This document shows positions 803 through 54,229 of a stretch of DNA of 64,000 bases, one piece after another. Origin of the DNA: Escherichia phage JM17; sequence record PP400779. One strand, 5' to 3'. Made by a program: the position numbers and the translations under genes. The notes below the pieces were generated by a model. It ran no database searches. It saw only the letters and a program-made list of their open reading frames with translations, and was not told the DNA's origin. Positions within the stretch are counted from its first letter, which is position 1. Each line of letters begins with the position of its first letter.

Positions 803-1537
803 ATGGAGCTAATCTTTTTAAGTGGCATCAAACGTAGTGGTAAAGACACTACTGCTGATTACATCAATTCAAACTTTAAATCCGTAAAATACCAATTGGC
901 ATATCCGATTAAAGACGCTCTAGCAATAGCCTGGGGACGTAAACATGCTGAAGATCCTGATGTATTCACAGAGTTGAAATACGAATACTTTGAAGGCATT
1001 GGATATGACCGTGAAACACCATTAAATCTCAATAAGTTGGATGTTATTGAATTATTGGAAGAAGCGCTAATTTATTTACAAAGTCAATATTTACCAATTA
1101 ATAATGTTAAAGTATTATCATCATTAGAAGGTGGGTATTCATATCTAGATATTAAACCATATGAAGCCCTGCGTGAAGCTATAAATAATATCAACGACAC
1201 ATGGTCAATCCGCCGTCTTATGCAAGCCCTCGGTACGGATGTTGTCGTTAATTTATTTGACCGTATGTATTGGGTTAAACTTTTTGCATTAAACTATATG
1301 GATTATATTGGAAGTGATTTCGATTACTATGTTGTAACCGATACACGCCAAGTCCATGAAATGGAAACCGCTAGAGCGATGGGTGCTACAGTTATTCATG
1401 TGGTTCGCTCTGGTACGGAATCCACTGATAAACATATTACAGAAGCTGGGTTGCCTATTGAAGAAGGCGATTTAGTTATTACAAACGACGGCTCTTTAGA
1501 AGAGCTTTATTCTAAAATTGAAACAATCTTAAGGTAA
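803..1537 (+). CDS. 1: deoxynucleoside monophosphate kinase (T4 gp1)
   Basis: 244 aa; N-terminal P-loop FLSGIKRSGKDTTADY; C-terminal ...ATVIHVVR...GLPI..GDLVITNDGSLEEL matches T4 gp1 as recalled. Confidence 0.9.
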   Translation: MELIFLSGIKRSGKDTTADYINSNFKSVKYQLAYPIKDALAIAWGRKHAEDPDVFTELKYEYFEGIGYDRETPLNLNKLDVIELLEEALIYLQSQYLPINNVKVLSSLEGGYSYLDIKPYEALREAINNINDTWSIRRLMQALGTDVVVNLFDRMYWVKLFALNYMDYIGSDFDYYVVTDTRQVHEMETARAMGATVIHVVRSGTESTDKHITEAGLPIEEGDLVITNDGSLEELYSKIETILR

Positions 1538-3560: not shown

Positions 3561-3841
3561 TTCTTTATGCTAAAGTATCGTCCATTGAGAACGGATATGA
3601 AAGCGACCAACGTGCAGCTAAAGCACTAGTTAATGACTACGGTATTCTGACTATCTTTGAGGTTGAAAAGGTTTATATCGACCGTTCATCTTCGCAAGTT
3701 AAATTACTCTGTGAAGACGATAAATTTAACACAGTTAACTTTGATTTCTTTATTGAAACAGAAAAAGGCCCTCTTGAATATGACATTTTCAAGAATCCTT
3801 TAGGACTTGATTGCATTCAGAACACATACACAATATGGTGA
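3557..3841 (+). CDS. hypothetical protein
   Basis: ATGA start/stop overlap with upstream ORF. Confidence 0.4.
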   Translation: MILYAKVSSIENGYESDQRAAKALVNDYGILTIFEVEKVYIDRSSSQVKLLCEDDKFNTVNFDFFIETEKGPLEYDIFKNPLGLDCIQNTYTIW

Positions 3842-3962
3842 GAAATCGTTTTGCCAACTGTTAAAATGATTGATTTGCTTTAAGAATTATGTGTTATTAT
3901 TAATTCATACCCTCTATTACCAAAGGTACTCTAAAGTGCCTTTCATAATAGAAAGTTATTTA

Positions 3963-4036
3963 GGCCCTGTAGCTCAATGGTTAGCAGCAGTCCCCTCATA
4001 AGGGAAAGGTTACCAGTTCGAATCTGGTCTGGGTCA
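3963..4036 (+). tRNA. tRNA with anticodon CAU (Met, or Ile2 if lysidine-modified)
   Basis: hand-folded cloverleaf: acceptor GGCCCTG/CTGGGTC (one U-U mismatch), D-loop with GG, anticodon loop CUCAUAA, T-arm ACCAG-TTCGAAT-CTGGT. Confidence 0.6.
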
Positions 4037-4042
4037 TATATT

Positions 4043-4119
4043 CGAGGCATAGCTCAATTGTATAGAGCAACGGATTTCTAATCCGTAGGTTGAAGGTTAG
4101 AATCCTTCTGCCTCGACCA
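4043..4119 (+). tRNA. tRNA-Arg (anticodon UCU), CCA encoded
   Basis: acceptor CGAGGCA/TGCCTCG, D-stem GCTC/GAGC, anticodon stem ACGGA/TCCGT with loop TTTCTAA, T-arm GAAGG-TTAGAAT-CCTTC, discriminator A plus CCA. Confidence 0.85.
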
Positions 4120-4435
4120 AATAAGAAGCCGGGTCGCTACCGGTAAGTCGTCGGACTGATGTTCCCTGAGTAAGGACTGGTCTTAATAAATCTTTACGAT
4201 TTGTTAATATCCCCTTACATCACAGCAGAAACGGCGCACCGAATTATCGATTCGAGGAAATATCTTTGCCGTAAGCCGAGTAGCGTTTTTGACGGAACGT
4301 TCGGATATGGTCGAGATATGGCCTTTTAAAAATATTGAGTAGCGTCAACTGCTTAATAACCGGGTTCGAATCCCGGCGTTTCGTACAAACACTTGCCTTA
4401 GCAGGTGGGACCCCGACAAGGTTGCCGCAAGGCTT
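4120..4435 (+). ncRNA. non-coding region after the tRNAs with tRNA-like T-arm (CCGGG-TTCGAAT-CCCGG at 4360-4376); candidate stable RNA or decayed tRNA
   Basis: no credible ORF; T-loop motif present but no full cloverleaf could be folded by hand. Confidence 0.25.
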
Positions 4436-4466
4436 AGCCCCTTCCTTATGGTTGGGGCTTTTTGGC
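4436..4466 (+). terminator. rho-independent terminator, copy 1 of a hairpin repeated three times
   Basis: CCCCTTCCTTATGGTTGGGGCTTTTTGG. Confidence 0.6.
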
Positions 4467-4508
4467 ATAATAATAAATAGATAAGTTAATTAACTTAGGA
4501 AAAGCAAC

Positions 4509-4973
4509 ATGAAATCATACGCTGAATTTTTGACTGAACAATCTAGTTCAGATGTAAAAGCCGCTGCGATTGCAGCAATTCAAGCAGGTAAATATTCTTA
4601 CAAAGACGCCTCTGATGAAGAACGTTTCCGTTTTATTAGAGATTTTAAAGCCGAAGGTTTTACTAATGCTAATACTGTTAGCCGAGTTTTTAAAAGCCTA
4701 GCTGCATCAGGTGAATTGTTCCAGAAAGCTACAGGTAAAGCACCTGCGCCAAAAGCGGACCCTAAAGCAGCTCAAGAAAAAAATATCGCCAAAGGAATTA
4801 TTTCTAAGTATGAAGCAATTCTTAAAGAGCTTTTAGTAATCAAAACAGAAGGACAGAAACTGGCACGAGCACATAGCTTCAAAGATAATCCTCACGCTCA
4901 TAGCCTTGAGTATGTTGAAGATATCCAAAAACTTATTAAAGACCGTATCTGGTCTGCTAAACAAATTAAATAA
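4509..4973 (+). CDS. internal protein-like basic protein (leader MKSYAEFLTE)
   Basis: 154 aa, Ala/Lys-rich; CTS-like N-terminus. Confidence 0.5.
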   Translation: MKSYAEFLTEQSSSDVKAAAIAAIQAGKYSYKDASDEERFRFIRDFKAEGFTNANTVSRVFKSLAASGELFQKATGKAPAPKADPKAAQEKNIAKGIISKYEAILKELLVIKTEGQKLARAHSFKDNPHAHSLEYVEDIQKLIKDRIWSAKQIK

Positions 4974-4979
4974 TAGAAT

Positions 4980-5010
4980 GCCCCCTTCCTTATGGTTGGG
5001 GCTTTTTGGT
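4980..5010 (+). terminator. rho-independent terminator, copy 2
   Basis: same 28-nt hairpin plus T-run as 4436-4466. Confidence 0.6.
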
Positions 5011-5097
5011 ATCTAGGGCATAAAAATATTTCATAAAGATGTTTACTTCTTCCCTAGATGTGTTACTATAGACCTATAAAAACATGAGGAAAATATT

Positions 5098-5403
5098 ATG
5101 AGTCTTTATACTGAACTGAATAAAAAATCTGAAGAATCTGCTGAAACTATTTTTAAAAACGTGCAAAAGCGTATTTTAGAAAAGATGTATAACACTGCAG
5201 CTAAAGGTGAAAAATCTTGCCGGTTTCCGATTAGGTGTTCTTCAGATTTATGCGCAAATACTATTGAATGGCTGGAAAGTGAAGGTCTTACGGTAGAGAA
5301 AAACCCGGCGACTTCTATTGACAGCGAATCATATATTAGTATTTCTTGGGATAAACCACGTATGAATGAAGGACACTACAAGTTGTTAAGTTGGAAAAAT
5401 TAA
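5098..5403 (+). CDS. hypothetical protein
   Basis: ORF behind a GTTTAC...TACTAT promoter and GAGGAAAA SD. Confidence 0.4.
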   Translation: MSLYTELNKKSEESAETIFKNVQKRILEKMYNTAAKGEKSCRFPIRCSSDLCANTIEWLESEGLTVEKNPATSIDSESYISISWDKPRMNEGHYKLLSWKN

Positions 5404-5471
5404 AAATAATGATGTACAAGCACCAAGGATGGTGATACTATAGACTTATCAACTACAGAGGAGTAAACAAA

Positions 5472-5636
5472 ATGACTACTTTAATTATTTGGTTCGATGA
5501 AAATGAAGAAACATACTGTGTGAATATTGGTGAAAGTCCAATGCCTGAATTTGAATCCTCGGATAAAAACTCTGTTGTATCTTGGGCTGAAGGTTATAAA
5601 GCCGCTAAAGGTGACGTTGAAATAATTTACATCTAA
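5472..5636 (+). CDS. small hypothetical protein (54 aa)
   Basis: not in track (under 60 aa); ATG preceded by AGAGGAG and a TGTACA...TACTAT promoter. Confidence 0.3.
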   Translation: MTTLIIWFDENEETYCVNIGESPMPEFESSDKNSVVSWAEGYKAAKGDVEIIYI

Positions 5637-5683
5637 GTACGTTTATGTTATAGTAATCACATCAAATCAAGAGGAGAAACAAA

Positions 5684-5911
5684 ATGGCTACAGTTAGTAT
5701 TGATGTCGTTGATTATGAATACACTGAAGAAGTTATTCGCAACCGTCACCCTGAAGTTCGTATCGATTCAGTCCAAGATTCCAAGTTTTGGACAACTGAG
5801 CTTAATCTGAGCGGTCCTTATGAAGCTGTTAAGAAGTTCATGGTTGAAGAATACTGCGAAGGCATGCACCCCGAAGACACCAAGTTTTATGTCAATTTGA
5901 TTAAAAAATAA
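5684..5911 (+). CDS. hypothetical protein
   Basis: ORF with SD AGAGGAGAA. Confidence 0.4.
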   Translation: MATVSIDVVDYEYTEEVIRNRHPEVRIDSVQDSKFWTTELNLSGPYEAVKKFMVEEYCEGMHPEDTKFYVNLIKK

Positions 5912-5960
5912 TTTACAAACTCTTGAGAGCAGAGTATAATGCTCTCGTTGGATAATAAAC
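5912..5960 (+). repeat. PeSL-like promoter cassette, copy A of a duplicated ~48-bp element
   Basis: ATTTACAAACTCTTGAGAGCAGAGTATAATGCTCTC...GGATAATAAA; nearly identical copy at 33140-33188. Confidence 0.6.
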
Positions 5961-5981
5961 CACCAATTGAAAGGTAATAAT

Positions 5982-6575
5982 ATGAACACACTGAAGAAAC
6001 TTGTTGAATTCATCCGCACTAAACTGGGTACTGCTATGGCTAAAAATCTGACTGTCGAAGAACAGTATAACGCAGCTGCAGATAAGTTGATCACCCAAAT
6101 CAAAGAACTAAAAACGGCTTCTGTTAAATCTATTAATGAAGAAAAACGTATTCGCGAACTTGTTAATGAAAAGAACAAGCAAGCCGCTTCTAAGGAACGT
6201 GAAATTCGTAAGCTCCTGGCTGAAGGACAAGATGTTACTATGCATGCTAAGCTTGGTCTTCTGTATCGTCGAACCGCCGAACAACTTAATACAAAAGCTG
6301 ACGGGTATGCCGCTATGCGAATTGAAATTGCTCGTAAGGTGGTTGAACTTGATGATGCTCGTCAGAATCTGGCAATCAAACTCGAATACATTCGTGAAAC
6401 TCGAGCAGCCAATGCCCTTGGTATCTCTACGGCTGATGATGTAATTGAAATCGCTGCACTGACTAAGGTTGATATCGAAGACACTCTGACTCGTGTTGAA
6501 ACGTTCAATGGCACTCCAGCCGGCGTCGAAACCACTTCTGCTGATGTACAAGAATATATTAACTCTTTGAAATAA
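5982..6575 (+). CDS. coiled-coil protein, possibly PspA/IM30-like
   Basis: 198 aa, heptad-rich Lys/Glu/Ala composition; GAAAGG SD; family assignment tentative. Confidence 0.35.
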
Positions 6576-6584
6576 AATAATACG

Positions 6585-6608
6585 GAGGACTCCGGTCCTC
6601 CTTTTGGA
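6585..6608 (+). terminator. rho-independent terminator
   Basis: GGAGGAC-TCCG-GTCCTCC followed by TTTTGG. Confidence 0.55.
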
Positions 6609-6624
6609 TAATAAAGGAGTTAAC

Positions 6625-7041
6625 ATGCGAAACCAAAATAATGATATTGACTCAATGTTCGAAGAGTTCCGAGATAAGGTAAATCCACCTACGTCTTTAG
6701 TTGATTCATTACGATATGTTGCAACTGGACGTAAATGGTACTGGTCGTCTTCTTATGAGACCACCGAGAAAACGGCTAGCCATAGCAGAAAATCTTTATT
6801 AGCCCCAGGTATTATGATTCATGATATCGGAGCTATTGCTAAACTAGTTGCAGACCATGATATTAGATTCACTGATTTCGTTGCTCCTACATGGTCTGTT
6901 TGTTGTTTAAACACCGAATTGGAATATATCAGTGAACGTTCAGATGATTACATAGGCTTTAGAGACAAGCTTTTAAGGTCTAACATGTTTTATATTGATA
7001 CAGAAGTTCTAGTCAATAATAAAAATACTACTTCACTTTAA
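6625..7041 (+). CDS. hypothetical protein
   Basis: AAGGAG SD then ATG 6625. Confidence 0.4.
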   Translation: MRNQNNDIDSMFEEFRDKVNPPTSLVDSLRYVATGRKWYWSSSYETTEKTASHSRKSLLAPGIMIHDIGAIAKLVADHDIRFTDFVAPTWSVCCLNTELEYISERSDDYIGFRDKLLRSNMFYIDTEVLVNNKNTTSL

Positions 7042-7192
7042 TCGTCGATTCTGAAACTATGTATGAAGGCAAGCCTTTGCTTAAGAGAGTTGATGCTTTA
7101 AGTGCTATTGATGCGCTTTATGAAACTATGGTTGTTAGTCCTAATTTCACTAACAATTTAATCCTTGAGCAATTTATTAAGGAATGTAGAAA

Positions 7193-7498
7193 ATGAGTAA
7201 GATTATTGAAATTAAAGTACCAGAGTTTAATGATGCCAAATCCGCTTCAGATGCAATTTATAAACTTCTGAATCAAGCTGAACGTATCGAAGAAGAAGCA
7301 ACAAAGATCGCAGACCAATATGCCGTATCATTTTCTGTAGGTGATTATGGTAGCGGTCGTACTTATTATCCTAAGGGTGAAATCGTATCCCAGTGGATGA
7401 AAAATGAAATTGAAAATAATGGTGGCGATGTTAAGCGTGAAGGTGATGGTTACGTTATTACTGAAGGTGCTTGGGTTTCGTCTTCTGCGTTGTGCTAA
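7193..7498 (+). CDS. small protein, member 1 of tandem family ending GAWVSSSALC
   Basis: 101 aa; C-terminal G-W-V-S/A-S-S-x-x-C shared with the next two ORFs. Confidence 0.45.
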   Translation: MSKIIEIKVPEFNDAKSASDAIYKLLNQAERIEEEATKIADQYAVSFSVGDYGSGRTYYPKGEIVSQWMKNEIENNGGDVKREGDGYVITEGAWVSSSALC

Positions 7499-7507
7499 GG
7501 AATCATT

Positions 7508-7780
7508 ATGTCTAAAGAACAAACCGAACTGGCTGAAGCTGTAGCAAAAATCTATGCAGCTATTGAGGCTGCCAAAGAAATTGCTGATAAACAAAACACA
7601 ACATTCGATTTGTACCCAGCTTATGGTATGGGTGGAACCTATCATTCACCAGGACATCTTAAAGCCGATCTTGAACGTTGTACAAAAAACGGCTATGCTG
7701 AATGGGCTGACGTTTACCAATACGACTACAACCTGAGCCTCGAAACTGGTGGTTGGGTCGCATCTTCTCACACTTGCTAA
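7508..7780 (+). CDS. small protein, member 2 of tandem family ending GGWVASSHTC
   Basis: 90 aa; AAGGAA SD; conserved C-terminal motif. Confidence 0.45.
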   Translation: MSKEQTELAEAVAKIYAAIEAAKEIADKQNTTFDLYPAYGMGGTYHSPGHLKADLERCTKNGYAEWADVYQYDYNLSLETGGWVASSHTC

Positions 7781-23917: not shown

Positions 23918-24913
23918 ATGAGCATTACATCTGATGCGGTAAAACATGAAATTAACGGTTTATGTGCTTCACAGATTAAAGTGTGGTTTAAAGACCATAA
24001 TGATCGCAGAGCACTTAATTATGAGCAAATTGCTATCCAAGTTCATCAATTACTGGTTAGTAAATTTGATTTTCATATGCCGTCTGAAATCTATACTAAT
24101 CTGCCGCGAGCACTTATTAAAGCGTGTAAAGGTTACGGAAAATCAATGGCTGATGGAATCTTCAGCGCGCTGAATAAACTTAACGTTCTGTCGATGATTA
24201 ACTCTAACAACATCCTGCGTAATCTAGGACGTACTGATTTGTTCGGCCGTGAACAGGGTAAAATGCCTTTGAAATGGATTGTTGCTCATCTTAACGAGAA
24301 CCAAACACGTTTTATGGCCGTAACAGCACGTTTACAAATGGGCCTAGATCGTCAGATGAACTTTAAAACTCATCCATGTTATTCAGGTTCAACAAACTTT
24401 TATAAATGTGAGCTTCAAAAGGTCGGTGGCAAAACTGTCTTAGTAGTTCGTGTAACGTTTGAAGGACGACGTCAAGGATATTTTGACATAATCGGCTCTG
24501 GCCTTAAACATTGTGGATTTATCGACGAAGTTGATATCAAGCGAGACGGCATTGGATACCGTATTGGATATGTTTGTACTCTTAAAGAAGAGATTTCAGG
24601 ACCAGCACCAGGACTAAAAGACGTTAGATATAAAGACGAGCTCGTTGAAGAAATAAAAGAAGTTGAATATGATATCAACCAAGAAGATGCTCTTAAAGAC
24701 CTTATTGATGAACTGAATCAAGACGTTATTCCGGTTCAGAAATTTGAATCAAAACATGCTGAGCAAATCAAATACTTTGAAGCTTTGATTAACGAACTTA
24801 ATGTAACTATTCAACAGACTGACGATGAAATCTCACGATTAGCAGGCTTAAACGGTAAAAATAAAACAGAACGAGCTAATCTTATTCAAGTAGTAAAACT
24901 TCTTAAGGAATGA
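23918..24913 (+). CDS. hypothetical protein with coiled-coil C-terminus
   Basis: 331 aa. Confidence 0.45.
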   Translation: MSITSDAVKHEINGLCASQIKVWFKDHNDRRALNYEQIAIQVHQLLVSKFDFHMPSEIYTNLPRALIKACKGYGKSMADGIFSALNKLNVLSMINSNNILRNLGRTDLFGREQGKMPLKWIVAHLNENQTRFMAVTARLQMGLDRQMNFKTHPCYSGSTNFYKCELQKVGGKTVLVVRVTFEGRRQGYFDIIGSGLKHCGFIDEVDIKRDGIGYRIGYVCTLKEEISGPAPGLKDVRYKDELVEEIKEVEYDINQEDALKDLIDELNQDVIPVQKFESKHAEQIKYFEALINELNVTIQQTDDEISRLAGLNGKNKTERANLIQVVKLLKE

Positions 24914-45707: not shown

Positions 45708-46343
45708 ATGAAAACTACTCCTATTACTATCGCTATTGACGCAATCATAAAACAAGCTTCTTCTTTGGCCGCTATGGCCAAAGTAATTAGTCAAAACCCT
45801 GCTCGTTATAATGCTATTCTAGAAACTCTTCGACGCCCTGGACTTAGTAATTATGAAAGCCGGGTAATTATTACAGGTGTTGGTAAGAATGCTAATATCG
45901 CAACTAAAGCTTCCGAGACATTTGCTTCACTAGGTATTCCTAGCATGTATTTGAACACTGGGCATTATTCTCACGGTGATGCAGGATTCATTGCGCCTAA
46001 TGATGTGTTGATTCATATTAGTCGTTCTGGTAAGACTGAAGAAATGATAGGTGTTGCTAAACATCTTCGTATGATTCGTCCTCAGGTTAAACAGATTCTG
46101 TTACATTGTAACCCAGACATTCCACAAGAATACGAAGCTCTTTTTGATTATACGTTCTGTACTGGCATCGCGGTAGAGGTTGATGAGAATTCTCTGGCTC
46201 CGACTATGTCCACTACATTGTTGTTAGCGCTTATCGATACGTTTGCTATCAACCTTTCGTCTGAACGTGGATTTACCTCTAATGATTTCCTTAAGTTCCA
46301 TCCAGGCGGTGCACTAGGTGCCATGTTACGAGGCGAACAATGA
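45708..46343 (+). CDS. SIS-domain sugar-phosphate isomerase (KdsD/KpsF/GmhA-like)
   Basis: 211 aa; SIS motifs ITGVGKNANIATK and ISRSGKTEE. Confidence 0.55.
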   Translation: MKTTPITIAIDAIIKQASSLAAMAKVISQNPARYNAILETLRRPGLSNYESRVIITGVGKNANIATKASETFASLGIPSMYLNTGHYSHGDAGFIAPNDVLIHISRSGKTEEMIGVAKHLRMIRPQVKQILLHCNPDIPQEYEALFDYTFCTGIAVEVDENSLAPTMSTTLLLALIDTFAINLSSERGFTSNDFLKFHPGGALGAMLRGEQ

Positions 46344-46483
46344 AAGCAATAACAATAGGACTTTTACTATTGATGCTTGTCATGACTATCTACTGGAGCT
46401 TAACGGCTCCGGTAATGATTCCAACACTTGTAATTGGATGGATTATGATTGGACTACAAGCAAAGTATGAATGCTTTAACTAG
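46340..46483 (+). CDS. small hydrophobic membrane peptide (47 aa)
   Basis: ATGA overlap with the SIS gene stop; not in track. Confidence 0.3.
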   Translation: MKAITIGLLLLMLVMTIYWSLTAPVMIPTLVIGWIMIGLQAKYECFN

Positions 46484-46524
46484 AATAGTGTACAATACTC
46501 CTACTTACCAATGAGGACTTTAAC

Positions 46525-48210
46525 ATGAAAAAAGCTGTTATTCTTGGTGCTGGACTGGCAACTCGTTTGTATCCAATAACGCATCATATTCCTAAGGTGC
46601 TTGTTAACTATAAACAAGATACTATTCTGAGCAATTTGTATACAATTTATTCTGACCTTGGCGCAGATGAAATTATTGTAGTAGTTCATTCAAAATTTGC
46701 TGAAACTGTTCGAGCTTATTGTGAACAAGAAGGGTTCAATGTGACTATTCGTACAGTTGATGAAGCGTATGGTTCTGCTTATGCTCTTGCTAAATTACAC
46801 AAAGATTTAGACGGCCATAATGTAATTGTTAACTGGTGTGATATTATTCCTGATTTTGGTTCATGGTCTTGGAATGTTAACGCAATCTATGTTAAGGGTG
46901 ACGAATGTCGATATAATTTCGACGGTGAAAATATCACTAACGTAGGTTCAACAGGTGGTAATGTTGTAGGAATTTATCAGTTCAAAGACTGGGAATTCTA
47001 TATGGGTTCTACTGATGAGGAAATTCATGAATACTGCAAAGGACGTGATTTCGTAGAATTCCTTTACGGCAGCGCATTCAATAAATCAGAGCTTATGAAT
47101 CTAATTGATTTAGGTGATATGCCTAAACTTGAAAAAGCTCATGAAGTTCGTGAACTTAATCGTAGTTTTAATGCAGTTGAAATTGGTGAAGAAACTGTAA
47201 CTAAATTCGCATTAACCGAACAGGGTCGAGCTCTTCAGAAAGATGAGATTTCGTGGTATCTTAAAGTGAAATCAGATTCAGTTCCTCAGTTAGTTTCTGT
47301 TAATGAAAATAACTTTGAAATGGAACGCATTAAAGGTAAGCCTGCATTTGAATATATTAAATCCAAATCAAGTCTTGCTCGTCCACAAATTGTTGATGCA
47401 ATTTTAGATGCACTGAAATTCAGCACAGACACTTATTTTGTAAGTCCTGAAACTGTTCGTCGTGATTTCACTAAAGAATTCTATACGAAAGTTATTGATC
47501 GTTGTGAAAGCATTCAACCATTGATTGATTCATTTGGTAAAATCACACATGTGAACTACACTAAGATTGGACGTCTGAAGCCAATGCTGAAACAAGCTTT
47601 AGAACACCTCATTCGTTATCATAACCGTTCTCAGGGACAGTACTCTGTTATTCACGGTGACCCGAACTTCAGTAATACTATGATTACTGATAATGGCGAA
47701 GTCAAGTTTATCGACCCTCGTGGATATTTTGGTGAAACCAAGATTTACGGGCCAAAATTGTACGATGAAGCTAAAGTGCTTTACGCTGTTTCAGGTTATG
47801 ATGAATTCAATGCTAATCCGACTTGGGGACAGTTTACTATTGATGAAACAACTTGTAATGTGACTATTAACATCAATCCATTAGTTTACAAATATGGAAA
47901 GATGAGTTCGTTTAACGAGTATCATCATTTGGCAGTGGCAATTATCTGGATTGCATTAGGTGGTTATTTCAAGAATAATCCACTTAAAGCGGTAGCCGCA
48001 TATTATAAAGGTATGGAACTTCTGACTAAGCAATTACGTAACATGGGCCGTGTACTTCAGGACGGCTCTATTAGTTATGACGTAGCAGAACCTGTAACGG
48101 CTACTCTGATTACAAAAAATCCTGGTAAATGGGTACTAACTGATAAAGAAACTGGTGTTTCCTATCGTCCAATCGGTGGCGATATCACTCATCAATGGGA
48201 ACGAATTTGA
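46525..48210 (+). CDS. bifunctional sugar-1-phosphate nucleotidyltransferase / sugar kinase (N-terminal NDP-sugar pyrophosphorylase, C-terminal APH/choline-kinase-like kinase)
   Basis: 561 aa; N-terminal GAGLATRLYP..PK signature; C-terminal Brenner motif HGDPNFSNTMITDNGEVKFIDPRGYFG. Confidence 0.6.
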   Translation: MKKAVILGAGLATRLYPITHHIPKVLVNYKQDTILSNLYTIYSDLGADEIIVVVHSKFAETVRAYCEQEGFNVTIRTVDEAYGSAYALAKLHKDLDGHNVIVNWCDIIPDFGSWSWNVNAIYVKGDECRYNFDGENITNVGSTGGNVVGIYQFKDWEFYMGSTDEEIHEYCKGRDFVEFLYGSAFNKSELMNLIDLGDMPKLEKAHEVRELNRSFNAVEIGEETVTKFALTEQGRALQKDEISWYLKVKSDSVPQLVSVNENNFEMERIKGKPAFEYIKSKSSLARPQIVDAILDALKFSTDTYFVSPETVRRDFTKEFYTKVIDRCESIQPLIDSFGKITHVNYTKIGRLKPMLKQALEHLIRYHNRSQGQYSVIHGDPNFSNTMITDNGEVKFIDPRGYFGETKIYGPKLYDEAKVLYAVSGYDEFNANPTWGQFTIDETTCNVTININPLVYKYGKMSSFNEYHHLAVAIIWIALGGYFKNNPLKAVAAYYKGMELLTKQLRNMGRVLQDGSISYDVAEPVTATLITKNPGKWVLTDKETGVSYRPIGGDITHQWERI

Positions 48211-48956
48211 TACATTATCTCTACAAAACTACTAATCTTATAAACGGTAAAGTTTATTTAGGAATGCACTCGGCTGAAGAAGCCGAGCCTTTAGATTTAT
48301 ATAAAGGTTCTGGTAAATTATATAAAAAGGCTGAAAGGAAATATGGGAAGGAAAATTTTCTTAAAGAAATCATTTCCTACCATAGCTCAAGAGAAGAATT
48401 AAAAATAGCTGAAAAGGCTCTAATAACATTAGACATAGTTAAAGACCCAAATTATTACAATCTTAAAACTGGTGGCGAAGGTGGTTCTGACGGGTTATCC
48501 CAAAGGTCCAAGGATAAAATTTCTAAGGCAAATAAAGGACGTTTAGTTGGTGATAAAAACCCAAGATGGGGTAAAACTTTGTCAGCTGAATCTATAGCTA
48601 GGGGTAAAGAAAAGCACAGGAGGTATGGTAAACCTGCATTACATGGTCTAAAGATTAATGTAGATGGCAAATATTATGAATCCTGTCGGGAAGCGGCTAA
48701 AGATTTAGGTATATCTTCTGCCACGATTCAAAAGAGAGTAAAATCGCCTAAATATCTTAATTATCGGTATCAGGACGAAAGCAAAAATGCTCACAAGTCT
48801 CAAAAATTTGTTAAAATAAACGAAAATTACTATGAATCTCTTAGGATAGCTGAAAAGAAAACGGGTATTCCTAGAAAGCGTATAGCTGATAATATTAAAA
48901 ATTCTATTGAAGGATATTGCTATGAAACCATTACATCTTTGCGTGGACGTCGATGA
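48195..48956 (+). mobile_element. GIY-YIG homing endonuclease gene (Seg-like)
   Basis: IHYLYKTTNLINGKVYLGMHS; NUMOD3-like repeats; overlaps both neighbours (16 nt upstream, 35 nt downstream). Confidence 0.55.
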
Positions 48957-49296
48957 TTGTATAACAGAGTGGAATAACAATCGTGATTACGTGAACTTCA
49001 AACCAGACGTCGAAATGGTGTCTGCCATTAATGCCCTGTATGATGCAGGGCATACAATAACGCTTTACACTGCTCGAGGTATGAAGTCAGTAGGTCCTGG
49101 TCGTATAGCAATTGACATTCTCCCAAGTCTGATTCAGAACTTGGCAAACATTGGCTTGAAGTACCATAATTTGCTAACACATAAACCAGTATATGATTGG
49201 ATTATCGACGACAAAGCTATGCGTCCTGACGAATTCAAAGCTCTTATGAATAAAGGCGAATTCGAAACATTTAAATCATATAAACCGAATCTATAA
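48922..49296 (+). CDS. HAD-superfamily phosphatase (KdsC-like small sugar-phosphate phosphatase)
   Basis: motif I LHLCVDVDDCIT, motif II TLYTARG, Lys in THKP, motif IV WIIDD. Confidence 0.55.
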   Translation: MKPLHLCVDVDDCITEWNNNRDYVNFKPDVEMVSAINALYDAGHTITLYTARGMKSVGPGRIAIDILPSLIQNLANIGLKYHNLLTHKPVYDWIIDDKAMRPDEFKALMNKGEFETFKSYKPNL

Positions 49297-49353
49297 TAAT
49301 TTAAGTAAGACCTGCAAAAACCATCGCATCAATTAACGTGAGATGCAAAAAAA

Positions 49354-50514
49354 ATGAATACTTTTAAAATTGGAACGAATTTTGATTTAGCTCTTCTTGA
49401 TAAAATCGTAGAGCTCAATAAAACTTATCCTAATAGCTTGATAAACGAAGTATACGGCTCTACAAGAGAAATGGCTTTTGTAGCAGCCAGACCTGATTTT
49501 AGGCTTCCTGACGTTGACAAAAAGATGTTAGAAGATTACGTTAAACGTTGTAACGAATTAGGTATTTGCTTTAACTATACACTCAACACGATAAATCCTG
49601 GTTCAAAAAGAGAACTAGTTGAGTGGAAGAAGAAAGCTATTCAGGATTATGTTCAGTATCTTTGGTCAATAGGCGTATGGCGTATTACTATCGCTAACCC
49701 TGTTGTTATGGAAATTGTTCGTGAAGTCAATAAAGACATTGAGATTGAAGTTTCAACAATTCTACATGTCGATGCTGTAACTCAAATCAAATACTTGCAT
49801 GACCAGTATAATATCAAAAAGGTCTGCTGTGGAATTCATAAGAACCGTTCAGTTTCTTTCCTGAAGCGTGCAGCAGAGTTTTGCAATAAGAACAATATAA
49901 TATTTGAAGTTCTTGTAAATGAGTTCTGTTCTAATGCCGGTAAAGGGTATACAACACATTGTAGCTATCGTGACTCTTGCTATATTTTCCATAGTACTGA
50001 TGTTACAGCTGATGATGCTAAATCCTTAAACGGATATCCTATGCAGCACTGTATTAAAGCTCGTGATACAGACCCATTTAACTGGTTGAGAACTCGTTTT
50101 GTTCGTCCTCAAGATTTGAAACTTTATAATGATATTGGTATCACTCAATTCAAAGTTTCAGGACGTACAGGTAGCACAGACTACATTTTGAAAGTTCTTG
50201 AAGCATACGCTTCTGAAAAGTTTGAAGGTAATTTGTTAGAACTGTGGAAGCCTTTAGAGACTATTTTCACTCTTGAAAATGAGACCGAGTTTTCACATAC
50301 GGTAAATATTGAAACCTCTTTGTTAGATGGCTTTTTAGAAAAAAGGTGGTTCAGACATCCAGATTTCGATTGTGCTAATGAGATCTGCGGGACGACGTGT
50401 ACATATTGTGAAAGATATTATAAACGTCAGTTATCTAAAAATGGGTTAGCAGAAAACTCTATATCTATTATTGATATAACTAACTCTGATGACGCTTTGA
50501 GGTACCCGGAATGA
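49354..50514 (+). CDS. Cys-rich enzyme of unknown function (possible metal/Fe-S protein, U32-like features tentative)
   Basis: 386 aa; Cys clusters VCCGIH, FCSNAGKGYTTHCSYRDSCY, CANEICGTTCTYCERY. Confidence 0.45.
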   Translation: MNTFKIGTNFDLALLDKIVELNKTYPNSLINEVYGSTREMAFVAARPDFRLPDVDKKMLEDYVKRCNELGICFNYTLNTINPGSKRELVEWKKKAIQDYVQYLWSIGVWRITIANPVVMEIVREVNKDIEIEVSTILHVDAVTQIKYLHDQYNIKKVCCGIHKNRSVSFLKRAAEFCNKNNIIFEVLVNEFCSNAGKGYTTHCSYRDSCYIFHSTDVTADDAKSLNGYPMQHCIKARDTDPFNWLRTRFVRPQDLKLYNDIGITQFKVSGRTGSTDYILKVLEAYASEKFEGNLLELWKPLETIFTLENETEFSHTVNIETSLLDGFLEKRWFRHPDFDCANEICGTTCTYCERYYKRQLSKNGLAENSISIIDITNSDDALRYPE

Positions 50515-50750
50515 TTTCTAGAAAAACTTTTAATCACCAACTTAATGAAGAGATTTTGACTACGAAACTGAACACTAACGAACAAATTCTTAAAAAGGCC
50601 CTTATGGGCCTGTTTGAAACCAAAGCGGCTAAAGTGATTAAAGGACCTGTTCAATTAGAATATTACGCTGATACATTTCTTCATAGTGTTCTTGGAAGTA
50701 TCGATGCTGAAGCTTTACGTTATATCAACATTGCCAAGAAATTCAAATAA
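50511..50750 (+). CDS. hypothetical protein (doubtful)
   Basis: ATGA overlap; an internal hairpin GGCCC-TTAT-GGGCC (50590-50607) could instead be a terminator. Confidence 0.3.
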   Translation: MISRKTFNHQLNEEILTTKLNTNEQILKKALMGLFETKAAKVIKGPVQLEYYADTFLHSVLGSIDAEALRYINIAKKFK

Positions 50751-50792
50751 GCTTTACGAATTGAGTATATAATAAATTGTATTGAGGTAAAC

Positions 50793-51509
50793 ATGGGAAA
50801 ACATAACACAATGAAATATATCAAAGCCGCAGATTTTCAAACCGCATTTAAAGCAGTCAATCGTGAAATTTTAGAAAACCCGGAATTCGTAACTGATTCT
50901 CGTATTGGACGTTGTAATGAAATTGGGTCTATGACAGTAGTTGTTGACACTCCATCATCATTCAAAATGACTGACCCACGTATTAACCGCATCTCTTATG
51001 AATATGCCGAAGACTTCTGGAAGTTTATGATTTCTGGTGGTACCAACGCAGAAGAAGCGTTTAAGGCATATCCTAATGTCGCTAAATTTATTTCTAAACC
51101 AAAATCAGATGTTTTGCCGGCGAACTTCAATACTTTCTATGGTCCTCGCATTGCGGCCCAATTACCAGCTCTTCTAAAAGAACTTAAAGAGAAGCCTAAC
51201 TCTCGAAGAGTTGTGTTCCAAATTCTAGAAAGTTCTGATCAGGCTTTGCTTGATTCGGATGAAACGCTTGAATATCCATGTACTGACTCAGTGACTTATT
51301 ATATTCGTGATGGTAAGCTTTATACCCACTGTCATATGCGTTCTCAGAACTGTGCTGTTGTTATGCAGTTGGATTTTTATCTCCAAGGAAAATTACTTCA
51401 TTATATCGCTAACGAATGCGGTGTAGAAGTTGGTGATTATACTCATACCATGGTAAGTGCCCATGTGTTTGAACGTGATTTTGATTATGTTAAAGGATTC
51501 CTTGACTAA
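50793..51509 (+). CDS. 42: dCMP hydroxymethylase (thymidylate synthase family, gp42-like, divergent)
   Basis: 238 aa; nucleophile Cys in EYPCTDSVTYYIRD; MRSQNCAVVMQLDFY with Asp at the pyrimidine-specificity position (Asn in thymidylate synthases). Confidence 0.65.
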   Translation: MGKHNTMKYIKAADFQTAFKAVNREILENPEFVTDSRIGRCNEIGSMTVVVDTPSSFKMTDPRINRISYEYAEDFWKFMISGGTNAEEAFKAYPNVAKFISKPKSDVLPANFNTFYGPRIAAQLPALLKELKEKPNSRRVVFQILESSDQALLDSDETLEYPCTDSVTYYIRDGKLYTHCHMRSQNCAVVMQLDFYLQGKLLHYIANECGVEVGDYTHTMVSAHVFERDFDYVKGFLD

Positions 51510-52408
51510 TGGCTATTTTCCGCGTACCAATCTTGAGTATGCGGTCTTATGAAACTGGACAGTATGCTATCCTTAAGGATGGCAACTTCCAACTTCATTT
51601 GCACCGTGCTAATCCGGGTGATGTGATTACATATCCACGTAATGCATCTGATATTAAAGAATGCGAACGTCTTTTCCCAGAATTTAAGTTTGTTCCATTA
51701 TGGTATAAAGATAACGCTTATAACACTCGTAAATATTTCTGGTCTGAAAATGAATTTGTGGTTGATTCATTAATTGCTTATTATGATTGCGATTTTCTAA
51801 TCACAGATATAACTGGATATGACGGCGCTTTTGATGTAGAATTCAATTTCAATATCACTGCAGACCCTAATAAACCACGTTTTTATATTGACGAATTCTT
51901 AAAAACCGACATGTTGTCGGTTAATCGTTCAATCCAAACAACTGTGTTGAATGAACGTCAAAAAGAAGTGCTGGTTAACGCAGGTGCAGATGGTAATAAG
52001 ATTATCGTAACGCAGAAAGTTATACGTCCTTCCATCATGCAGCGTCTTGTAGGTGATTTGGCTCCTATTTATCTAGATGGTATTTTTCATCCATTTCGAA
52101 TTAGTGACCCGTGCTATCGTTTTGAACAAGTGGTTGAATGTGCAATTCAATTAGGTCAACCGCTTTATATAACCGATCCAAATAATAGCTTTGACAGAAA
52201 TAAGTATCCTGAAGAAGCGTTGATTCGAATTTTTAAACCAACTAAAACTGAGTACTATCAAATTCTTAAAGGACGTCCGAAGATTCAATATTTCGAAAAT
52301 CCTGAAGAAGTATTTCATCCAGGTCTTGGTGAGTTCATCTACTTTAATGCTTTAATTTCTTCACCGTATAATATACCTAAATATGAAGATGTCGTAATCG
52401 AGGAATAA
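51509..52408 (+). CDS. protein of unknown function in the beta-gt slot (candidate DNA glycosyltransferase, unproven)
   Basis: 299 aa; no resemblance to T4 beta-gt recognised. Confidence 0.4.
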   Translation: MAIFRVPILSMRSYETGQYAILKDGNFQLHLHRANPGDVITYPRNASDIKECERLFPEFKFVPLWYKDNAYNTRKYFWSENEFVVDSLIAYYDCDFLITDITGYDGAFDVEFNFNITADPNKPRFYIDEFLKTDMLSVNRSIQTTVLNERQKEVLVNAGADGNKIIVTQKVIRPSIMQRLVGDLAPIYLDGIFHPFRISDPCYRFEQVVECAIQLGQPLYITDPNNSFDRNKYPEEALIRIFKPTKTEYYQILKGRPKIQYFENPEEVFHPGLGEFIYFNALISSPYNIPKYEDVVIEE

Positions 52409-52409
52409 A

Positions 52410-52958
52410 ATGGCTAAAATTATTTTAGTAGATGGCCCGGATAATGCTGGTAAAACAACTTTCATTAATGACATAATGGAAATTAGTGAAAGATATGTAA
52501 AAATTGATTTCCCTAAACGAACAGTTGATGGACGTTTCGATGTTAAGTCTCGAAATGAAGTTGGCTGTTTTGAAACGATGTTGAATTATTTAGACCCTAC
52601 TAAGATTTATCTGTTAGACCGTGGATATATTAGTAACTGGGTTTACGGACGTATTCGACAAGATGCGGACTCGGTTCTTGACGTTTATGAACAGGATTAT
52701 ATTCGTCTTTGCCAAAACCATGATGTGTTCACAATTATTTTAACACGTAACGAAATGACTGAAAGTTTTGAAGATGACCTTATTACTTTGTCTTCATTAG
52801 GTTTTAATACAGTCATTTCACATTTTGAAGAGTTTGCAATTCATAACAAAATCCAAACGTATCAATTACTTAATCATGATGGTGCTAACAAAGTTATAGG
52901 ATTTAATGCAAGCGAACGTAATGATTTGATTACAGAAATCATCAAATGGGCTCGTTAA
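52410..52958 (+). CDS. P-loop nucleotide kinase (thymidylate-kinase-like)
   Basis: IILVDGPDNAGKTT plus DRGY motif in LLDRGYISNW. Confidence 0.5.
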   Translation: MAKIILVDGPDNAGKTTFINDIMEISERYVKIDFPKRTVDGRFDVKSRNEVGCFETMLNYLDPTKIYLLDRGYISNWVYGRIRQDADSVLDVYEQDYIRLCQNHDVFTIILTRNEMTESFEDDLITLSSLGFNTVISHFEEFAIHNKIQTYQLLNHDGANKVIGFNASERNDLITEIIKWAR

Positions 52959-53056
52959 GAGCCATTTAAAGTTTTAAATGCTGTATAACCCTTAGTATAT
53001 AATCATTTTATCTTTTAAACATGAGTAAAATATAATGATGCCTATGGAAAAATACA

Positions 53057-54229
53057 ATGTCTGATTTAAAATCTCGTCTGATTAAAGCTTCTACTTCTAA
53101 AATGACTGCAGACTTGACTAAGTCTAAGCTGTTTAATAATCGTGATGAAGTCCCTACTCGTATTCCGATGTTGAATATTGCACTAGGTGGTGCTCTGAAT
53201 GCAGGATTGCAATCAGGCTTGACTATTTTTGCTGCACCTTCTAAACATTTTAAAACATTGTTTGGACTAACTATGGTCGCAGCGTATATGAAGAAATATA
53301 AAGATGCAATCTGTTTGTTTTATGACTCAGAATTCGGTGCTTCAGAATCTTACTTCCGTTCGATGGGTGTTGATTTAGACCGTGTAGTTCATACTCCGAT
53401 TCAATCTGTCGAACAACTTAAAGTCGATATGACTAATCAGCTTGACGCTATTGAACGCGGTGATAAAGTTATTATCTTTATCGATTCAATCGGTAATACT
53501 GCATCTAAGAAAGAAACCGAAGATGCATTGAACGAGAAAGTTGTAGGTGATATGTCTCGTGCTAAGGCACTTAAATCTCTTTTCCGTATTGTGACTCCTT
53601 ATCTGACTATTAAAGATATTCCATGTGTTGCAATCAACCATACCGCAATGGAAATTGGCGGATTGTACCCTAAAGAGATTATGGGCGGCGGTACAGGTAT
53701 TCTTTATTCTGCTAACACTGTATTCTTTATCTCTAAACGTCAGGTTAAAGAAGGTACAGAATTGACCGGTTATGACTTCACGTTGAAAGCAGAAAAATCT
53801 CGCACAGTTAAAGAGAAATCTACTTTCCCGATCACGGTTAATTTTGATGGCGGTATTGACCCATTCAGTGGCTTGTTAGAAATGGCAACTGAAATTGGTT
53901 TTGTAGTTAAGCCTAAAGCCGGTTGGTATGCTCGCGAATTCCTTGACGAAGAAACAGGTGAAATGATTCGTGAAGAAAAATCATGGCGTGCTAAAGCTAC
54001 TGATTGTGTAGAATTCTGGGGGCCGTTGTTTAAACATAAGCCTTTCCGAGATGCAATTGAAACTAAATATAAACTAGGTGCTATCTCTTCTATTAAAGAA
54101 GTTGATGACGCTGTTAACGACCTTATTAATTGCAAAGCAACAACTAAAGTTCCGGTTAAAACTTCTGATGCTCCGTCTGCAGCAGATATAGAAAACGACC
54201 TTGACGAAATGGAAGATTTCGATGAATAA
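53057..54229 (+). CDS. uvsX: recombinase UvsX (RecA-like)
   Basis: 390 aa; Walker A-like segment and acidic C-terminus; matches T4 UvsX as recalled. Confidence 0.9.
   Translation: MSDLKSRLIKASTSKMTADLTKSKLFNNRDEVPTRIPMLNIALGGALNAGLQSGLTIFAAPSKHFKTLFGLTMVAAYMKKYKDAICLFYDSEFGASESYFRSMGVDLDRVVHTPIQSVEQLKVDMTNQLDAIERGDKVIIFIDSIGNTASKKETEDALNEKVVGDMSRAKALKSLFRIVTPYLTIKDIPCVAINHTAMEIGGLYPKEIMGGGTGILYSANTVFFISKRQVKEGTELTGYDFTLKAEKSRTVKEKSTFPITVNFDGGIDPFSGLLEMATEIGFVVKPKAGWYAREFLDEETGEMIREEKSWRAKATDCVEFWGPLFKHKPFRDAIETKYKLGAISSIKEVDDAVNDLINCKATTKVPVKTSDAPSAADIENDLDEMEDFDE

Follow-up and report, generated by a model that had tools for sequence, protein, structure and literature searches.

The kinase gene and its neighborhood

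The stretch of 64,000 nucleotides from Escherichia phage JM17 (record PP400779), here called the window, encodes a small P-loop kinase at the end of a DNA modification cluster which lies between the genes for DNA polymerase and uvsX. The genes of this cluster, the second nucleotide kinase of the window and the signal in front of the kinase start are the following:

803-1537, plus strand: gp1-type dNMP kinase (PHROG 139, E 1.1e-59), of a separate family from the kinase at 52410-52958
45708-46343, plus strand: arabinose-5-P isomerase
46525-48210, plus strand: sugar-1-P nucleotidyltransferase/kinase, 561 aa
48195-48956, plus strand: inserted homing endonuclease
48907-49296, plus strand: HAD phosphatase
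49354-50514, plus strand: peptidase-U32-family protein
50793-51509, plus strand: ThyA homologue of the 5-hydroxy-dCMP synthase type (= RB69 gp48; PF00303, E 2e-15)
51509-52408, plus strand: base-proximal DNA arabinosyltransferase, 299 aa (= RB69 gp46:47; PHROG 3891, E 1e-155), immediately upstream of the kinase
52400-52404, plus strand: ribosome-binding site GAGGA, read from the sequence, 5 nt ahead of the kinase ATG, so that it lies within the 3' end of the glycosyltransferase gene
52410-52958, plus strand: thymidylate-kinase-like (TMPK-like) P-loop kinase, 182 aa plus stop, ATG start, orthologue of RB69 gp45 (NP_861735.1)

From DNA polymerase towards uvsX the order is isomerase, nucleotidyltransferase/kinase, homing endonuclease, HAD phosphatase, U32 protein, a 79-aa ORF, ThyA homologue, glycosyltransferase and kinase. 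The roles given for the part from 45708 to 50514 are those proposed in PMC13326640, where glycosyltransferases of the RB69 gp46:47 type are named arabinosyltransferase 1 (Table 1).

The kinase product starts with MAKIILVDGPDNAGKTT and contains LLDRGYISNWVYG further inside. Only one base separates the TAA stop of the glycosyltransferase (52406-52408) from the ATG of the kinase, a spacing which suggests translational coupling. Because of this 1-base gap, the GAGGA site and the lack of any terminator-like site found in 50400-53200, the kinase is most simply regarded as co-transcribed and translationally coupled with the genes upstream. An identical protein is deposited for Escherichia phage JM17 under the name "hypothetical protein", the RB69 counterpart (RB69p045, product at 24050-24595) is 98.4% identical, and the 3.7 kb surrounding the kinase are 98-99.6% identical to many genomes of Mosigvirus (RB69-like T-even phages). 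The ORF matches PHROG 761 ("thymidylate kinase") with an E value of 3.6e-45. Judged by this match, by its occurrence in 343 phage records and by the invariant residues described below, it is a genuine gene and no chance reading frame.

The initial annotation had placed the kinase next to a 42-like gene. Both are indeed part of the same cluster, but the direct neighbour is the glycosyltransferase, and the 42-like gene (50793-51509) follows one position further upstream. Nor does this gene belong to the hydroxymethylase (hm-dCMP) type, as had been supposed, because its MRSQN...LD signature corresponds to D169N + N177D, which is the published diagnostic of 5-hydroxy-dCMP (5hodCMP) synthases (PMC13326640). 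The gp1 dNMP kinase that had been assigned to 803-1537 was recovered as such by the PHROG 139 match.

The published chemistry is important for what follows. RB69-type phages contain arabinosylated 5-hydroxycytosine (5hoC) and not, as formerly believed, arabosyl-hydroxymethylcytosine; for RB69 gp48, the ThyA homologue, the function as a flavin-dependent 5-hydroxy-dCMP synthase has been shown, and RB69 gp159, a gp1-type kinase, converts 5hodCMP to 5hodCDP in vitro (PMC13326640). 5hodC enters E. coli DNA with the synthase and gp159 or even with the synthase alone, so that gp45 is not needed, and the UDP-arabinofuranose route, consisting of isomerase, AfhE-like kinase/uridylyltransferase and AfhF-like phosphatase, is complete without an extra kinase (PMC13326640). 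RB69 gp45 itself appears in the same paper (NAR 2026) as a "nucleotide kinase", by fold only, and had been tabulated in 2021 as the thymidylate-kinase homologue of the modification cluster; the gene is therefore already catalogued as the putative nucleotide kinase of this RB69 cluster. No enzymatic assay of RB69 gp45 was found in the accessible literature, in which a preprint on gene essentiality by transposon insertion likewise offers nothing on this gene. That scope does not extend to Mahler et al. 2025 (Cell Host Microbe) and He et al. 2026 (Nat Chem Biol), the latter on afhA-F of phage HY126; either may contain such an assay, and with regard to them our conclusion on the function of the kinase is provisional.

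Conserved motifs

The TMPK-like P-loop ORF with a GPDNAGKTT and a DRGY motif, as described in the initial annotation, was confirmed by translation. The relevant segments are:

52434-52460, plus strand: Walker A / P-loop GPDNAGKTT, residues 9-17, including D11, the TMPK-type P-loop Asp
52509-52520, plus strand: FPKR, residues 34-37, which follows strand 2 and corresponds to FPER/FPQR of the thymidylate kinases from eukaryotes and poxviruses
52617-52628, plus strand: DRGY, residues 70-73, counterpart of the TMPK motif DR(Y/H/F)
52746-52784, plus strand: presumed LID from R113 to FEDDLI, residues 113-125, acidic and not Arg-rich

In thymidylate kinases the P-loop Asp contacts the deoxyribose 3'-OH, and the Arg of the DR motif is a clamp for the donor and acceptor phosphates. 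The P-loop of the window kinase aligns with GLDKSGKTT of vaccinia TMPK, and FPKR with FPER/FPQR of the vaccinia and yeast enzymes. The segment LDRGYISNWVY is paired with VDRYAFSGVAY of TMPK, so that DRGY falls on DRY of vaccinia and yeast TMPK and on DRF of YorR. While D70 and R71 match the DR pair, the third residue is Gly instead of an aromatic one, with Tyr following one position later.

An alignment of 49 diverse relatives has G9, G14, K15, D70 and R71 invariant and D11, Y79, D122 and N133 conserved to at least 90%; F34, P35 and K36 are invariant within the T4-like clade. The presumed LID, R113-NEMTESFEDDLI, contains one Arg and five acidic residues. Its FEDDkI part aligns with rgDEyIe of YorR, and the predicted model is of low confidence here (pLDDT 59 over residues 121-130). 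The position of the class-I P-loop Arg is occupied by N12, so that the kinase has neither this catalytic Arg nor the Arg-rich LID of class II. An acidic general base, which in hydroxyl-phosphorylating relatives such as dNKs sits after strand 2, is not conserved there among the 49 relatives; like D11, the DR pair and FPKR, this would fit a nucleotide as acceptor.

Family placement

The homology search proposed in the initial annotation placed the protein among thymidylate-kinase-like proteins, first by the PHROG 761 match and second by a profile built from the 49 diverse members, which matches the PDB entries of yeast (E 2.4e-10) and Aquifex (E 6e-10) thymidylate kinase. The same profile matches YorR over nearly the full YorR length (E 3.7e-9). 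Searches with the single sequence against Pfam and the PDB sequences gave nothing significant; in Pfam there is no PF02223 match at E values up to 1, and the NCBIfam dTMP kinase model TIGR00041 scores 16.3 bits with a cutoff of 83.25. By these curated models the protein does not count as a dTMP kinase.

The kinase has the alpha/beta fold of NMP kinases with CORE, NMP-binding and LID parts, as well as the TMPK P-loop GxDxxGK(S/T)T with the sugar-contacting Asp. It differs from thymidylate kinase (EC 2.7.4.9) in several respects: with 182 aa it is shorter than the usual ~205-215 aa, its NMP-binding region lacks ~18 residues, helix 3 (LLFSANRWE) conserves neither the Phe that stacks on thymine nor the Arg that binds O4, Gly stands where DRY has its aromatic residue, the LID is acidic and the class-I P-loop Arg is absent. 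In the profile alignment the helix 3 segment of yeast TMPK is paired with a KSRNEVGCF-type sequence, and the ~18 absent residues lie before it. From the profile matches together with these departures we regard the kinase as a divergent, YorR-like mini-member of the TMPK superfamily. YorR (Bacillus prophage SPbeta, PDB 2AXP/3KB2) is itself an uncharacterised mini-kinase and, unlike the window kinase, has no association with a 5hoC synthase.

Two further families were tried and rejected. The T4 gp1-type dNMP kinases (PHROG 139, PDB 1DEK) differ in both sequence and structure, although T4 gp1 resembles the window kinase in being phage-encoded and is likewise thought to feed modified dCMP into DNA synthesis. 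Polyphosphate kinases 2 belong to another sequence family and have a longer full-length architecture (~230-300 aa with lid). The window kinase thus belongs with the RB69 gp45-like kinases of 5-hydroxycytosine clusters, a subset of PHROG 761, whose orthologues include RB69 gp45 (the window gene as it occurs in a sister Mosigvirus), DLP3 gp78 and Thanatos TH2_067.

Co-occurrence with 5-hydroxy-dCMP synthases

By tblastn, homologues of the kinase with 35-99% identity were found in 343 phage records, all of them T4-like. With E values up to 1e-25, 345 records contain a close homologue of the ThyA-like synthase. The two sets are distributed as follows (kinase/synthase): Escherichia 176/176, Acinetobacter 57/57, Klebsiella 25/26, Shigella 15/15, Enterobacter 9/9, Serratia 9/9, Proteus 7/7 and Yersinia 6/6. 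T-even phages of the hmC type are absent from both lists.

The place of the kinase varies by lineage, yet it is always found within the modification cluster. In Mosigvirus and Thanatos it comes after the glycosyltransferase, and Thanatos-2 shows the same ThyA-glycosyltransferase-kinase order as the window; in Dhakavirus, Klebsiella and Proteus phages the kinase follows the HAD phosphatase. Dhakavirus IME341 lacks both the arabinose-5-P isomerase and the U32 gene but keeps the kinase, which is therefore as much a core component as the synthase. A possible exception to this linkage is Tenacibaculum phage PTm5, which has a ThyA homologue (37.8% identity) and a nucleotidyltransferase; no kinase of this family was detected within 6 kb on either side. 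In total, synteny and co-occurrence strongly support the connection of the kinase to the base-modification genes that had been proposed from its position.

Uncultured relatives and MBD4-like fusions

The family is small: when 1.84 billion representatives were searched exhaustively with the profile, 317 matched with E < 1e-3, and 45 of these with E < 1e-10. The contigs of seven core representatives were sampled. In five of them (L009, L010, L015, L016 and L022) a ThyA homologue directly adjoins the kinase, and the L009 neighbourhood also holds an FMN reductase, a SIS isomerase and an AfhE-like protein. At L014 a homologue of glycosyltransferase 1 lies near the kinase on a contig too short for more, and the L006 contig ends 126 nt upstream of the kinase gene. 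All ThyA neighbours at the uncultured loci (five to six, including the five named) carry MRS(Q/N)N...D, that is Asn at the position of E. coli D169 and Asp at N177, as in the synthase of the window. The kinase of a distant profile match (P0079, locus L020, E ~1e-7) has no ThyA beside it, and therefore the linkage applies to the core family only, with E below ~1e-10.

Eight representatives from uncultured phages, 314-357 aa in length, consist of the kinase domain followed by ~150 extra C-terminal residues, which match the glycosylase domains of MBD4 in the PDB (E 1e-9). The catalytic Asp of MBD4 lies in a GxGKYxxDS segment, and this segment including the Asp is retained in the fusions. In the window no stand-alone ORF of this type was found. 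A stand-alone homologue of the fused domain is present in Xanthomonas phage Xp12 and its relatives (hmmsearch E 9.6e-22), in Xp12 two genes upstream of a ThyA-like gene; a search of the 12 kb surrounding this ThyA-like gene revealed no kinase of our family. In Xp12 DNA every C is replaced by 5-methylcytosine. In the simplest reading the MBD4-like domain would repair deaminated modified cytosine, i.e. T:G in Xp12 and 5hoU:G in the 5hoC phages. Because Xp12 has the domain near a ThyA-like gene without the kinase in these 12 kb, we regard the fusion as a joining of functions for the upkeep of modified cytosine and not as a pointer to a DNA substrate of the kinase.

Comparison with kinases of other phages

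Rhizobium phage RL38J1 shows a similar gene order of ThyA (gp216), glycosyltransferase (gp215) and a TMPK-fold kinase (gp214). Its gp215 belongs to the same PHROG 3891 as the glycosyltransferase of the window (E 8e-88), and with gp219, a gp1-type kinase of PHROG 139, the phage has both kinase types. The kinase gp214, however, was rejected as a clear member of our family: it is assigned to PHROG 37904, our family HMM matches it marginally (E 9.6e-6) and hhalign covers the P-loop only. We treat gp214 as an analogue; any homology to our family would be very distant. The 5hoC of RL38J1 carries galactose and glucose (PMC13326640, Table 1). From this positional analogy and the completeness of the UDP-arabinofuranose route it would follow that the kinase serves the base and not the sugar.

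Like the window kinase, the 5-hmdU DNA kinases or 5-HMUDKs (M6 gp54, ViI gp67) are small phage P-loop kinases encoded beside ThyA-like pyrimidine-modifying genes. They differ in belonging to PHROG 800, in having no DR motif and in acting on the base hydroxymethyl group in DNA. Membership in this group was rejected, as hhalign aligned only Walker A, with probabilities of 81% and 12%, and M6 gp54 is a PHROG 800 protein. The ViI "dnk" that adjoins the thyA of this phage was on comparison also unrelated to the window kinase.

Phage XP-12 reportedly induces a 5-methyl-dCMP kinase activity, described biochemically in the early 1980s. The logic is common to XP-12 and the window: C is fully replaced, a ThyA homologue makes the modified dCMP and a kinase is required for it.

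Proposed function of the kinase

With moderate confidence we propose that the kinase is a cassette-borne 5-hydroxy-dCMP kinase. It would belong to the thymidylate-kinase superfamily as a small nucleoside-monophosphate kinase that depends on ATP, and together with the ThyA-like 5-hydroxy-dCMP synthase and the first glycosyltransferase it would form a mobile 5-hydroxycytosine cassette. The kinase would convert 5-hydroxy-dCMP, the product of the synthase, to 5-hydroxy-dCDP, and the triphosphate used by the phage polymerase would be formed from this by host Ndk; arabinosylation would come last, on the DNA. In T4-like phages the kinase would act beside the gp1-type dNMP kinase, whereas phages that lack gp1 would have no other phage-encoded route. 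We infer this substrate and reaction as the best supported ones from the P-loop Asp, the invariant DR pair, the missing general base and the obligate pairing with a 5hodCMP synthase. The modified-nucleotide substrate suggested in the initial annotation would thus be broadly right, with a different base: since this type of phage makes 5-hydroxycytosine (PMC13326640), the candidate is 5-hydroxy-dCMP rather than hm-dCMP.

Several observations count against the assignment as a 5-hydroxy-dCMP kinase. The active site is atypical for a TMPK, part of the NMP-binding region and the thymine contacts are lacking, the scores stay below those of the curated dTMP-kinase models, and the RL38J1 kinase gp214 is only marginally related in sequence. 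The main weakness is gp1: RB69 gp1 handles 5hodCMP and coexists with the kinase, as does a gp1-type kinase with gp214 in RL38J1. In T4-like phages an activity on 5hodCMP would thus duplicate that of gp1 at least in part, and the near-universal retention of the kinase needs an explanation. Higher efficiency or selectivity, a legacy of the cassette or a different step are possibilities. Near-universal retention beside gp1 and the repeated MBD4-like fusions hint that the kinase, instead of duplicating gp1, performs a 5hoC-specific step which hmC phages do not need, be it as a gatekeeper strictly selective for 5hodCMP that excludes dCMP or, more radically, as an enzyme acting with or on 5hoC DNA; this we regard as a speculative reading of low probability.

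Action on another nucleotide, be it dTMP, a dCMP/UMP-type substrate for pool balancing or the conversion of 5hodCDP to 5hodCTP without host Ndk, is unlikely but deserves consideration. The kinase shares its fold and motifs with thymidylate kinases, many database records use this name, and the coverage of the step from 5hodCMP to 5hodCDP by RB69 gp1 leaves room for a different one. However, the thymine-binding residues are not conserved and the kinase fails the curated dTMP-kinase models. To our knowledge, enzymes of the NMP-kinase fold normally do not convert NDPs to NTPs, which counts against the step from 5hodCDP to 5hodCTP. The hmC T-evens share the needs for dTMP, UTP and NDP kinase and yet do without the gene, and the strict pairing with the D169N synthase argues for a 5hoC-specific substrate.

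We consider it improbable that the kinase acts at the level of DNA, either on the 5-OH of 5hoC or on a DNA end during 5hoC repair. The eight fusions with a base-flipping glycosylase domain of the MBD4 type would fit such a role, and there is the precedent of the 5-HMUDKs, P-loop kinases encoded beside ThyA homologues and HhH-fold transferases which phosphorylate a base hydroxyl in DNA (PMC8989533). But the kinase has only the P-loop in common with M6 gp54 and ViI gp67 of PHROG 800, and its TMPK-type P-loop Asp and DR motif fit a free nucleotide. On chemical grounds, glycosyl transfer from a UDP-sugar to a hydroxyl should need no preceding phosphorylation, and an aryl phosphate would be a poor leaving group. 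The fusions are explained by a module for upkeep, as the Xp12 homologue occurs without the kinase in the 12 kb examined.

A sugar substrate, which the initial annotation had considered as well, is unlikely, as the kinase tracks the 5hoC synthase and not the arabinose genes. We accordingly give little credence to a role in the sugar branch, with arabinose or a sugar phosphate as the small molecule that is phosphorylated, or to a mini PPK2-like enzyme: the UDP-arabinofuranose route is complete without it, a kinase stands at the same place in RL38J1 where the sugar differs, in most lineages the gene lies beside ThyA or the glycosyltransferase, the general base typical of hydroxyl kinases is not conserved, and the 182-aa protein has no PPK2 lid elements. 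A non-catalytic or regulatory P-loop protein, such as a scaffold of the dNTP complex or a nucleotide sensor, is very improbable. The acidic, atypical LID would fit such a role, as would the fact that apart from R71 and R113 no Arg is an obvious candidate for stabilizing the transition state. But even at ~20% identity the Lys of Walker A and both residues of the DR pair do not vary, and D11, D122 and N133 hardly do, a pattern expected of an active phosphotransferase.

Significance for 5-hydroxycytosine phages

The pathway to glycosyl-5-hydroxycytosine was worked out only in 2025-2026, and in the accessible literature the kinase is one of its few conserved parts whose role is putative. New in this analysis are the near one-to-one co-occurrence of the kinase with D169N synthases, the exclusion of the kinase from the 5-HMUDKs, the gp1 family and the true thymidylate kinases together with the list of its atypical active-site features, and the kinase-MBD4-like fusions in uncultured phages. 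The identity of the substrate bears on the question why T4-like phages keep two nucleotide kinases. If known, the substrate would help to reconstitute the synthesis of 5hoC- and arabinosyl-DNA in vitro or in engineered hosts. It also bears on whether the trio of synthase, glycosyltransferase and kinase may be a self-sufficient, transferable cassette for 5hoC DNA.

Genes upstream of the synthase

Three ORFs lie in the stretch that precedes the 5-hydroxy-dCMP (5hodCMP) synthase gene, the ThyA homologue of the window:

48195-48956, +, free-standing homing endonuclease of 253 aa (group I intron endonuclease family TIGR01453, E 4e-17)
49354-50514, +, peptidase-U32-family protein of 386 aa (Pfam PF01136, E 7e-11)
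50511-50750, +, ORF of 79 aa (PHROG 8601) between the U32-family gene and the synthase gene

Hydroxylases that work without O2 are known in the U32 family, among them RlhA (ho5C in 23S rRNA), TrhP (ho5U in tRNA) and UbiU/V; the NCBIfam match of the window protein to UbiU is weak. The synthase gene lies two genes downstream of the U32-family gene, whose product could allow 5-hydroxycytosine to be formed under anaerobic conditions; the 5hodCMP synthase itself depends on O2 and flavin. RB69 gp50 is listed as a "sugar or heterocycle reductase" in Table 1 of a NAR 2026 study (PMC13326640). The U32-family gene is found in Mosigvirus, in Klebsiella and Proteus phages and in Thanatos, and is missing from Dhakavirus IME341.

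For the 79-aa ORF no Pfam or NCBIfam family match was obtained. The small ORF keeps its position in the cluster of Klebsiella phages, where an ORF of 246 nt follows the U32 gene of L003. The homing endonuclease ORF is inserted between the genes of the nucleotidyltransferase/kinase and the HAD phosphatase and overlaps both gene ends.

The ThyA cluster of phage PTm5

L017 (AP019525) 3716-7570, cluster of Tenacibaculum phage PTm5 with guanylyltransferase-like NTase, histidine phosphatase, ThyA homologue and a 280-aa ORF

The ThyA homologue of this Flavobacteria jumbo phage shares 37.8% identity with the window synthase, and the RB69 gp45-like kinase family was not found within 6 kb of the cluster, which may represent a divergent 5-substituted-cytosine pathway.

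MBD4-like glycosylase domains

In eight proteins of uncultured phages (P0059, P0060, P0065, P0067, P0069, P0074, P0076 and P0116; loci L006, L009, L010 and L016) the kinase domain is fused to an MBD4-like HhH glycosylase domain, which matches PDB MBD4 with an E-value of 1e-9 and keeps the catalytic-Asp segment. D169N-type ThyA homologues adjoin the fusion genes, and these fusions may serve the repair of deaminated 5-hydroxycytosine (5hoU:G).

L009 (uncultured phage contig JAXOUH010003483.1) 11068-11613, FMN reductase gene (PF03358)
L019 (Xanthomonas phage Xp12, NC_073033) 5914-6396, gp61, free-standing homologue of the fused MBD4-like domain (hmmsearch E 9.6e-22)

The FMN reductase gene directly follows the kinase-MBD4 fusion, and a SIS isomerase gene comes next. 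This is consistent with the reported dependence of 5hodCMP synthases on flavin (PMC13326640). T4-like clusters, unlike L009, lack an FMN reductase gene.

Xp12 gp61, annotated as hypothetical, also has homologues in Stenotrophomonas and Janthinobacterium phages. The ThyA-like gene of Xp12 is located two genes downstream of gp61. In Xp12 DNA cytosine is replaced by 5-methylcytosine, and a role of gp61 in T:G mismatch repair following 5mC deamination would fit.
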